Positions 30,827 through 32,680 of a stretch of DNA of 64,000 nucleotides are shown here, piece by piece. Source of the DNA: Escherichia coli (GTDB lineage Bacteria; Pseudomonadota; Gammaproteobacteria; Enterobacterales; Enterobacteriaceae); NCBI RefSeq assembly GCF_044324785.1, contig NZ_CP172127.1. One strand, given 5' to 3'. The notes under the pieces are model-generated. The model saw only the letters and a program-made list of their open reading frames with translations. It was not told where the DNA came from and did no database searches. Within the stretch, counting starts at the first letter, position 1; each line of letters opens with the position of its first letter. The position numbers and the translations under genes are program-made.

Positions 30827-32680
30827 ATGAAAATGACTTTGCCGTTTAAACCCCATGTGCTGGCGCTAATTTGCAGTGCCGGGCTTTGTGCCGCCTCTGC
30901 CGGGCTATATATAAAAAGCCGCACAGTGGAAGCGCCTGTGGAAGCGCAATCGACACAACTGACTGTGTCTGACGCTGCCGCGGTTACGCTTCCTGCAACG
31001 GTTTCCGCGCCTCCCGTAACACCCGCCGTCGTCAAATCCGCATTCAGCACTGCGCAAATAGATCAATGGGTTGCACCTGTCGCGCTGTACCCCGACTCTC
31101 TGCTTTCACAAGTGTTAATGGCATCAACCTATCCGACAAACGTTGCGCAAGCAGTGCAATGGTCGCACGATAATCCACTTAAACAAGGCGATGCTGCTAT
31201 TCAGGCGGTATCTGACCAGCCGTGGGATGCAAGCGTCAAATCACTGGTGGCCTTTCCACAGTTGATGGCGTTGATGGGCGAAAACCCGCAATGGGTGCAA
31301 AACCTGGGCGATGCTTTTCTGGCGCAGCCGCAGGACGTGATGGACTCGGTACAGCGATTGCGGCAACTGGCGCAACAAACCGGCTCGCTGAAGTCATCAA
31401 CCGAACAGAAAGTTATTACCACAACGAAGAAAGCTATACCGGTAAAACAGACAGTCACGGCTCCCGTCATACCATCCAATACCGTTTCAACTGCCAACCC
31501 TGTCATTACAGAGCCTGCAACAACCGTCATTTCCATTGAGCCCGCCAATCCTGATGTGGTCTATATTCCCAACTACAACCCAACCGTGGTTTACGGGAAC
31601 TGGGCCAATACTGCGTATCCGCCGGTTTATCTGCCACCACCAGCCGGAGAACCGTTTGTTGACAGCTTTGTGCGCGGATTCGGCTATAGCATGGGCGTTG
31701 CTACCACGTACGCACTATTTAGCAGCATCGACTGGGACGATGACGATCATGACCATCATCATCATGACGATGATGATTATCATCACCACGATGGCGGTCA
31801 TCGTGACGGTAATGGCTGGCAACACAACGGCGACAACATCAATATCGACGTCAACAATTTCAACCGTATCACCGGTGAGCATCTTACTGATAAGAATATG
31901 GCATGGCGGCACAATCCAAACTACCGTAATGGTGTGCCCTATCATGATCAGGATATGGCAAAGCGGTTTCACCAAACCGATGTTAACGGCGGCATGAGCG
32001 CCACGCAGTTACCTGCTCCAACACGCGACAGCCAGCGTCAGGCGGCAGCAAGTCAGTTTCAGCAACGAACACACGCCGCACCCGTCATTACGCGAGATAC
32101 CCAACGTCAGGCAGCGGCACAGCGGTTAAATGAAGCTGAACACTATGGGAGCTATGACGACTTCCGCGACTTCAGCCGTCGCCAACCACTGACCCAGCAA
32201 CAAAAGGACGTTGCTCGTCAGCGTTATCAGTCGGCCTCTCCTGAGCAGCGCCAGGCAGTCCGCGAGAAAATGCAGACTAACCCACAGAACCAGCAGCGAA
32301 GAGAGGCGGCGCGCCAGCGTATTCAGTCCGCCTCGCCTGAGCAGCGCCAGGCAGTCCGCGAGAAAATGCAGACTAACCCGCAGAACCAGCAGAGAAGAGA
32401 AGCGGCGCGTGAGCGTATTCAGTCCGCATCACCAGAGCAGCGCCAGGTGTTTAAGGAAAAAGTACAGCAGCGCCCACTGAACCAACAGCAACGTGATAAT
32501 GCCCGCCAGCGTATACAATCGGCATCACCTGAACAACGTCAGGTTTTTCGGGAGAAAGTTCAGGAGAGCCGCCCACAACGTCTAAACGACAGTAACCATA
32601 CTGTCAGGCTGAATAACGATCAACGGTCAGCAGTACGCGAACGTCTCTCTGAGCGCGGAGCAAGGCGACTGGAAAGGTAA
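30827..32680 (+). CDS. yacH: DUF3300-like secreted protein YacH (repeat-containing, His/Asp-rich)
   Basis: 617 aa, signal peptide MKMTLPFKPHVLALICSAGLCAASA, His/Asp cluster and 32-aa tandem repeats near the C-terminus. Confidence 0.85.
   Translation: MKMTLPFKPHVLALICSAGLCAASAGLYIKSRTVEAPVEAQSTQLTVSDAAAVTLPATVSAPPVTPAVVKSAFSTAQIDQWVAPVALYPDSLLSQVLMASTYPTNVAQAVQWSHDNPLKQGDAAIQAVSDQPWDASVKSLVAFPQLMALMGENPQWVQNLGDAFLAQPQDVMDSVQRLRQLAQQTGSLKSSTEQKVITTTKKAIPVKQTVTAPVIPSNTVSTANPVITEPATTVISIEPANPDVVYIPNYNPTVVYGNWANTAYPPVYLPPPAGEPFVDSFVRGFGYSMGVATTYALFSSIDWDDDDHDHHHHDDDDYHHHDGGHRDGNGWQHNGDNINIDVNNFNRITGEHLTDKNMAWRHNPNYRNGVPYHDQDMAKRFHQTDVNGGMSATQLPAPTRDSQRQAAASQFQQRTHAAPVITRDTQRQAAAQRLNEAEHYGSYDDFRDFSRRQPLTQQQKDVARQRYQSASPEQRQAVREKMQTNPQNQQRREAARQRIQSASPEQRQAVREKMQTNPQNQQRREAARERIQSASPEQRQVFKEKVQQRPLNQQQRDNARQRIQSASPEQRQVFREKVQESRPQRLNDSNHTVRLNNDQRSAVRERLSERGARRLER
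32216..32590. repeat. about 96-bp tandem repeat (roughly 4 units) inside yacH
   Basis: Units encode Q/RQRIQSASPEQRQAVREKMQTNPQNQQRREAA; two units nearly identical, two degenerate. Confidence 0.85.

Follow-up and report, generated by a model that had tools for sequence, protein, structure and literature searches.

The His/Asp tract of Escherichia coli YacH as a predicted disordered insertion at a conserved hairpin tip of the DUF3300 family

A 64,000-nucleotide stretch of Escherichia coli DNA (contig NZ_CP172127.1 of assembly GCF_044324785.1), referred to here as the window, carries the yacH gene, whose protein product includes a segment composed almost entirely of histidine and aspartate (Table 1). 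Structural models and family alignments indicate that this tract is a disordered insertion at the predicted tip of a conserved beta-hairpin. Both gene and tract already appear in databases but are uncharacterized. The present analysis adds where the tract lies in the structure and in the evolution of the family, shows that it is conserved across the Enterobacteriaceae, and identifies it as a hotspot for indels and for pseudogene formation. By analogy with the His-rich loops of other periplasmic proteins, we tentatively propose that the segment might serve as a weak, multi-site, pH-titratable loop for cation binding.

Composition of the His/Asp tract

The tract includes 12 Asp and 9 His residues, so that 21 of its 26 positions are one or the other, and this confirms the composition noted in a preliminary description of the region. 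Among the 122 stop-free segments of at least 100 amino acids in the six frames of the window, the next-best stretch of 26 residues has nine such residues and the median is five. The binomial probability of observing 21 in 26 with a background of 7.5% His plus Asp is approximately 1e-19. One noncoding frame of the window attains 9 of 26. The best of the other real genes in the window reaches 8 of 26, in the Met/His-rich segment of CueO (approximately 23791..23868, minus strand). This segment is the methionine-rich region through which the multicopper oxidase is known to bind copper.

Two spurious open reading frames (ORFs) overlap the tract because it is encoded by a run of NAY codons, whose reverse complement, RTN, specifies Ile, Met or Val. 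Both had been placed on the reverse strand when the region was first described. This holds for the shorter one, which is antisense to the codon run, but the longer ORF is actually on the plus strand in another frame.

An expanded hairpin tip in a DUF3300 protein

The only Pfam match of YacH is DUF3300 (PF11737; 265.6 bits against a cut-off of 25, E = 4.5e-79, residues 75-333). The match covers positions 2-227 of the 227 in the profile, and the His/Asp tract falls within the domain envelope. In addition, yacH is annotated between acnB and lpdA in 5,425 of 5,426 complete E. coli genomes. The name originally given to the protein is supported by both lines of evidence. YacH is a bona fide member of DUF3300 and belongs to no metal-binding family. 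The protein is not covered by an NCBIfam model, and no structural or sequence relative was found in the PDB.

A search of 1.84 billion cluster representatives yielded 9,550 DUF3300 clusters (50% identity) at E of no more than 0.001, and we built an alignment of 106 full-length members of the family (A1). The first strand of the putative hairpin has Gly or Ala alternating with columns of I, F, V or L, and it ends at a Trp near the start of the tract (W303). This Trp is invariant in all 106 members and occupies one of just seven invariant columns in the alignment. The second strand alternates hydrophobic residues with Asn, and its family consensus is (V/I)-N-(I/V)-N-V-N-R-Y-N-N-I-N. In 82 of the 106 members, exactly four residues lie between the Trp and the second strand (for example GRGD, GHGD, HHGD or HRHH), versus 34 residues in YacH.

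Predicted structures agree with this arrangement. The AlphaFold2 (AF2) model of a relative with a short turn, P0144, has strands at residues 242-245 and 250-253 that flank the turn with predicted local distance difference test (pLDDT) scores of approximately 87-90. For the YacH model, DSSP assigns strands to residues 299-301 and 338-341, while the intervening loop scores 44-50 and has no secondary structure. Pairing of the two strands is suggested by the four-residue connection together with the DSSP assignments. The complete loop holds 10 His and 12 Asp residues, and has the flexible-loop feature of proteins of the ZnuA type. Together with the preceding D302 and W303, it has a computed charge of approximately -11 at pH 7 and approximately 0 at pH 4.5 (residues 302-337).

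We also considered a second transmembrane helix at residues 281-301, which would place the tract in the cytoplasm. This candidate was rejected on the basis of Kyte-Doolittle values below 0.8 and a residue alternation like that of a beta-strand.

The same alternating patterns (hydrophobic/small in one strand and hydrophobic/Asn in the other), along with the Trp residues that adjoin the tip, are also what might be expected of an amphipathic, Gly-rich hairpin that inserts, probably in oligomeric form, in the outer membrane. The His/Asp segment would then be a loop at the cell surface or within the lipopolysaccharide (LPS) layer, and its variability might reflect diversifying pressure from phages or immunity, or the binding of cations that bridge LPS. 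The identity of yacH with its counterpart in a K-12-like genome is 96.0% versus 99.1% for lpdA, which is consistent with such pressure, and some papers list YacH as an outer-membrane or extracellular protein on the basis of predictors (PMC9600279, PMC8865558). However, AF2 packs the strands of P0144 within a soluble domain with pLDDT values above 85, no likeness to any barrel or pore-forming protein is evident, and no localization experiment was found in the literature. We regard this arrangement as improbable. A more specific version, in which the membrane-inserting hairpin holds its loop in or beyond the outer membrane to bind LPS-bridging divalent cations or cationic peptides, appears to us to have little chance of being correct. 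If true, it would explain the protamine phenotype described below, the control by Cpx and Rob, and the variability among strains, and YacH would be an unrecognized envelope component that tunes susceptibility to polycations.

Conservation of the loop and its composition

The preliminary description had raised the possibility that the tract might be missing from orthologs, and this proved not to be the case. It is present in 120 of the 120 closest Escherichia/Shigella variants, wherein the part from the Trp to a GNGW sequence spans 21-28 residues. His occurs there in runs of 3-6 and Asp in runs of 3-4, and Asp is occasionally replaced by Asn. A cross-species scan that used one genome per species revealed an expanded loop in 35 Enterobacteriaceae loci at species level, representing at least 12 genera. 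Its length ranges from 17 to 34 residues, and it nearly always begins with DW-DDD. The genera include Escherichia, Citrobacter, Atlantibacter, Salmonella, Dryocola, Buttiauxella, Enterobacter, Franconibacter, Raoultella, Kluyvera, Yokenella and others that are unnamed. Scandinavium and Rahnella have an expanded loop as well, and a non-enteric homolog in the same scan carries a GRGS turn.

Over 29 distinct orthologs, the loop is composed of 35% Asp, 26% His, 16.5% Gly, 9% Asn and 8% Tyr, with 0.1% Glu and no Lys. Codons of the form NAY (Asp, His, Tyr and Asn) account for approximately 78% of these residues. Synonymous codons are interleaved (GAT:GAC 70:71, CAT:CAC 54:45) and differ among genera, and Asp and His are retained. 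Because at least 12 genera retain the composition in the face of this synonymous turnover, sequence comparison argues that the loop is not a DNA-level or neutral microsatellite, and that its amino acid composition is constrained with a preference for Asp over Glu.

Histidine is also characteristic of this site in the wider family. Among the 106 aligned members, it makes up 19% of the residues in the loops or turns between the Trp and the second strand versus 1.65% elsewhere, and at least one His is present in 61 of the 106 turns. The distant relatives P0168, P0127, P0256, P0183 and P0210 have independent His-rich expansions in this position. A second, divergent DUF3300 subtype (...AYALYSYIDW-PHHDHDHDRHNDDPDRKDHD...), represented by P0210, P0292 and P0164 from Dryocola and from metagenomes, has its own His/Asp loop at this location; the enterobacterial genus in which it occurs has a YacH ortholog as well.

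Length variation and frameshifts

Comparison of tract length across strains, as had been suggested for this region, revealed variation by whole codons or by units of eight residues within E. coli. The tract of the window protein includes an imperfect tandem duplication of a unit of eight codons. The CFT073 allele has one additional unit (DHDHHHHD), the Ecol_542 allele has an additional DH (two residues), and variants that differ by a single codon also occur. All of the length variants observed in E. coli are multiples of three nucleotides. A divergent Escherichia allele, from AST85, retains the composition of the loop. In Salmonella Typhimurium, an 8-base-pair deletion in the tract has converted yacH into a pseudogene in strains UK-1, 14028s, SL1344 and D23580 and in a human-milk isolate (PMC3391293, PMC10048834). 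Duplication and slippage of NAY-codon units would lead both to the length variation among strains and to the occasional frameshift of yacH.

Truncated or shortened forms of the gene were also encountered in some relatives, including E. coli E69 (L015), a Pluralibacter metagenome-assembled genome (L042) and P0126. The E69 frame stops approximately 322 codons past the start of the matched region, which is 3' of the tract. In P0126, the tract is missing together with the strand that follows it.

These dynamics raise the possibility that the loop is a low-complexity expansion of no functional consequence that has been tolerated at a hairpin tip, inflated by slippage of NAY codons and maintained by mutational inertia. 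Length polymorphism by single codons and by 8-codon units, as well as the internal 24-base-pair repeat, are as expected for such a segment. The 78% of residues specified by NAY codons are interconvertible by single changes of the first base, His has been eroded in some genera, P0126 does without the entire segment, and several S. Typhimurium strains have lost the gene through a deletion in the loop. However, drift would not readily preserve an Asp/His composition across at least 12 genera while scrambling the synonymous codons. The products of single changes at second or third codon positions (Glu, Gln, Lys, Arg, Pro, Leu, Val and Ala) are almost excluded, and distant lineages have gained His-rich expansions at this site independently of one another, with His enriched even among turns of four residues. 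We find neutrality an unlikely explanation for the loop.

The frameshifting deletion in Salmonella Typhimurium might also suggest a contingency locus, in which yacH is switched on and off by reversible frameshifts in the tract. This phase-variation proposal is largely refuted, and we give it almost no credence. The E. coli length variants are all in frame, and the Salmonella lesion is a lineage-fixed deletion common to several strains. Moreover, the repeat is imperfect and has mixed codons, with neither a homopolymer nor the perfect array of short units that is typical of contingency loci.

A tentative cation-binding role

We tentatively favor a scenario that begins with an ancestral turn of four residues, often including His, at the tip of the hairpin. 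In the Enterobacteriaceae, this turn would have grown to 17-34 disordered residues of Asp, His, Gly, Tyr and Asn through duplication and slippage of NAY-codon units, and selection would have retained the composition. In the periplasm, the loop might bind Zn2+, Ni2+, Cu2+ or Co2+ through His together with Asp, and its Asp runs might bind Ca2+ or Mg2+. It could thereby capture or buffer ions beside the conserved hairpin, in the manner of the disordered His-rich loops known from ZnuA and PA4063. To judge from comparable proteins, a flexible loop with 9-11 His residues, including a run of four, would almost certainly bind Ni, Zn or Cu in vitro.

The preliminary description had put the tract forward as a candidate metal-binding segment. 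Its likeness to the loops of ZnuA and PA4063 keeps this candidacy alive, but nothing found here ties the loop to metal physiology in the cell, and several observations weigh against the cation-binding role that we infer. Our literature search found no paper that links yacH to any metal. A consensus scan of the 355 base pairs upstream of the gene revealed no box for Fur, Zur, CueR, CusR, NikR, RcnR, ZntR or MntR that scored above shuffled sequence (the best Zur and Fur matches were 13/23 and 12/19, respectively), and the regulation by metal-responsive factors that had been envisaged for yacH gained no support. Some orthologs have few His residues in the loop, such as Buttiauxella agrestis with one and Yokenella with three, and many turns in the family have none (for example GRGD and GGGN). 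The gene is dispensable in Salmonella Typhimurium (PMC3391293). Finally, the published responses of yacH point elsewhere. Expression is regulated by CpxR and repressed by protamine, in part through CpxR, and a deletion mutant survives protamine better (PMC9600279). In a rob mutant, expression is lower by approximately 16 fold (PMC7537768).

The same scan revealed no CpxR, marbox, PmrA or PhoP box upstream of yacH above shuffled sequence. A perfect 6-1-6 palindrome, GGTGATAATCACC, is located at approximately 30698..30710 (plus strand), about 120 base pairs 5' of the yacH start codon. It was evaluated as a Fur box and rejected, having 12 of 19 consensus positions, which is no better than shuffled sequence. 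A binding site for the sigma-28 (RpoF) holoenzyme has been reported in the spacer between acnB and yacH (PMC5493296).

Envelope-related phenotypes are more readily accommodated if the loop acts through its charge, either as an electrostatic or pH switch or as a loop that binds polycations, with any metal binding being incidental. In variants of this idea, the partner of the loop would be either a cationic antimicrobial peptide, for example protamine, or the basic C-terminal tail of YacH itself, and protonation of His in acid would release the loop. The computed titration of the loop from -11 at pH 7 to neutral near pH 4.5 and the net charge of +19 in the C-terminal region are both suggestive. 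The improved survival of the deletion mutant and the CpxR-mediated repression fit as well (PMC9600279), as do a modest change in the yacH transcript in the presence of a cathelicidin peptide (PMC6737244), induction of the promoter by ampicillin (PMC8865558), and the Rob-dependent expression that groups yacH with envelope-stress genes (PMC7537768). On the other hand, a role based on charge alone should tolerate Glu, and this residue makes up 0.1% of the loop versus 35% for Asp, even though GAY and GAR codons differ by a single change. The basic tail is found family-wide, including in relatives with a turn of four residues, and so does not depend on an acidic loop. Furthermore, the protamine phenotype comes from a single study of a whole-gene deletion and was not mapped to the loop. 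On balance, a purely electrostatic function seems somewhat unlikely.

Comparison with known proteins

The closest functional parallels to the proposed cation-binding loop are in two other periplasmic proteins. ZnuA has a disordered loop of approximately 20 residues that is rich in His and acidic residues, is invisible in crystals, contributes two further Zn sites of lower affinity, and has a debated role (PMC8900738). The YacH loop differs in its location at a beta-hairpin tip and in a preference for Asp that almost excludes Glu. Moreover, YacH does not belong to the cluster A-I solute-binding proteins, which have a primary metal site and are the hosts of ZnuA-type loops. It has neither the solute-binding protein fold nor a primary high-affinity site, an ATP-binding cassette (ABC) transporter partner, or a Zur box (by consensus scan).

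PA4063 from Pseudomonas aeruginosa resembles YacH in having been an uncharacterized periplasmic protein for which His-rich stretches were the sole clue in the sequence. Its two His-rich loops are disordered in the apo form, and they form exposed Zn sites of micromolar affinity from Asp and two or three His residues (PMC8561739). PA4063 adopts a ferredoxin-like fold, and zinc starvation induces its expression within a Zur-controlled operon, whereas YacH has a different, unsolved fold and gives no sign of regulation by metals. The likeness of the YacH loop to those of ZnuA and PA4063 is a functional analogy only.

Runs of His mixed with Asp or Glu also occur in the central loop of RcnA, in HypB, in the C-terminal tail of SlyD and in Hpn, where they coordinate multiple Ni, Co or Zn ions at modest affinity. 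However, these are cytoplasmic proteins or loops of membrane transporters whose genetics and regulation connect them with Ni/Co pathways, and no such ties are known for YacH. The acidic patch of the periplasmic domain of PhoQ (EDDDDAE) is an Asp run that binds Mg2+ or Ca2+ in competition with cationic antimicrobial peptides. YacH is similar in having two DDDD runs and a protamine phenotype (PMC9600279). The PhoQ patch differs in being short, structured, apposed to the membrane and part of a sensor kinase, whereas YacH has no signaling domain.

Homologs of the DUF3300 family from other Proteobacteria share with YacH the helical core, the Gly-rich strand, the invariant Trp, the VNINVN strand, the W-x-H-x-P-x-H-R motif and, probably, a signal peptide. 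They differ in having a turn of four residues and a DUF2950 gene directly 3', whereas yacH stands alone between acnB and lpdA and encodes Gln/Arg repeats of 32 amino acids. Outside the Enterobacteriaceae, this DUF3300-DUF2950 arrangement is present in L008 (4968..7439) and L009 (3407..8405), and a rhizobial survey found the pairing to be universal, with a function that is not known (PMC4653623). The yacH gene has either lost or never had this partner. In L009, a cluster of ABC_tran, FtsX and DUF3299 genes lies 5' of the DUF3300-DUF2950 pair. The neighborhoods of distant homologs offered no functional clue, as they include DUF2950 only, accompanied once by ABC_tran-FtsX-DUF3299.

Other features of yacH and its surroundings

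YacH probably begins with a Sec signal peptide, as judged from its sequence, with a signal anchor as the alternative. The only segment that resembles a transmembrane helix is near the N terminus (residues 11-29, Kyte-Doolittle maximum 2.04), and it is followed by an A-S-A|G site. The DUF3300 member P0144 has a classical signal peptide, and signal peptides have been reported for the family (PMC4653623). The linker that follows (residues 27-74; positions 30827..31048 of the window, plus strand, include both it and the signal peptide) is rich in Thr, Pro, Ala and Val and is polymorphic for indels, with an extra VEAP unit in strain N3 and a longer insert in strain AST85.

Beyond the helical core and the hairpin, a family-wide motif is located approximately 20 residues downstream. 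Four of its residues (W360, H362, R367 and Y372) are each at least 90% conserved in the DUF3300 alignment, and all are present in the window protein. The C-terminal tail is basic, rich in Gln and Arg, and helical, with a net charge of +19 over residues 401-617. The copy number of its repeats differs among E. coli strains, and gene lengths range from 1758 to 1866 base pairs.

The yacH gene is more polymorphic than its neighbors. Across positions 27875..34238 of the window, identity with a K-12-like genome is 96.0% for yacH, 97.1% for acnB, 99.1% for lpdA and 99.2% for the acnB-yacH spacer. The best yacH match to the window among complete E. coli genomes is 97.9% identical. Downstream, lpdA is in convergent orientation. 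The early account of the locus was correct in placing acnB next to yacH, but it also cited proximity to cueO (23455..25044, minus strand). These two genes are separated by 5.8 kilobases that include speE, speD and acnB, and because they belong to separate transcription units, the closeness of cueO carries no weight as a clue to metals.

Table 1. Features of the yacH region, in coordinates of the 64,000-nucleotide window
Feature	Position	Strand	YacH residues	Sequence or basis
yacH coding sequence (DUF3300 family)	30827..32680	+	617 amino acids plus stop	ORF list, Pfam match, genome annotation
Probable Sec signal peptide	30827..30901	+	1-25	Cleavage after A-S-A; hydropathy
All-helical conserved DUF3300 core	31049..31378	+	75-184	AF2 pLDDT above 95; near-invariant columns A83...L188
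Spurious ORF in another frame	31536..31997	+		ORF list
Hairpin strand 1 (predicted)	31676..31735	+	284-303	GFGYSMGVATTYALFSSIDW; ends at the invariant Trp
Spurious Ile/Met/Val-rich ORF	31715..31975	-		Antisense of the NAY codon run
His/Asp tract	31730..31807	+	302-327	DWDDDDHDHHHHDDDDYHHHDGGHRD; 26 residues
Whole expanded hairpin-tip loop (predicted)	31736..31837	+	304-337	34 amino acids; alignment, AF2 pLDDT 44-50
Imperfect tandem duplication, 24-base-pair (8-codon) unit	31740..31785	+		Tandem Repeats Finder: period 24, 1.9 copies, 86% matches
Hairpin strand 2 (predicted)	31838..31873	+	338-349	INIDVNNFNRIT; alternation pattern, DSSP
Family-wide motif W-x-H-(N/D)-P-x-H-R-x-G-V-P-Y-R-D	31904..31948	+	360-374	WRHNPNYRNGVPYHD
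Tandem repeats of 96 base pairs (32 amino acids), C-terminal tail	32219..32488	+		SASPEQRQAVREKMQTNPQNQQRREAARQRIQ; Tandem Repeats Finder: period 96, 2.4-2.8 copies

Implications

YacH is among the uncharacterized products of the E. coli genome. The DUF3300 family to which it belongs is large and comprises secreted proteins without a solved structure or a known function. The finding by itself opens no major question. Placement of the tract at an expanded hairpin tip explains the recurrent yacH pseudogenes and the indel hotspot that are encountered in comparative genomics. In addition, its location beside an invariant Trp suggests a simple exchange of the loop for a GRGD turn, which would provide a handle on the hypotheses that involve metals, pH and cationic peptides.

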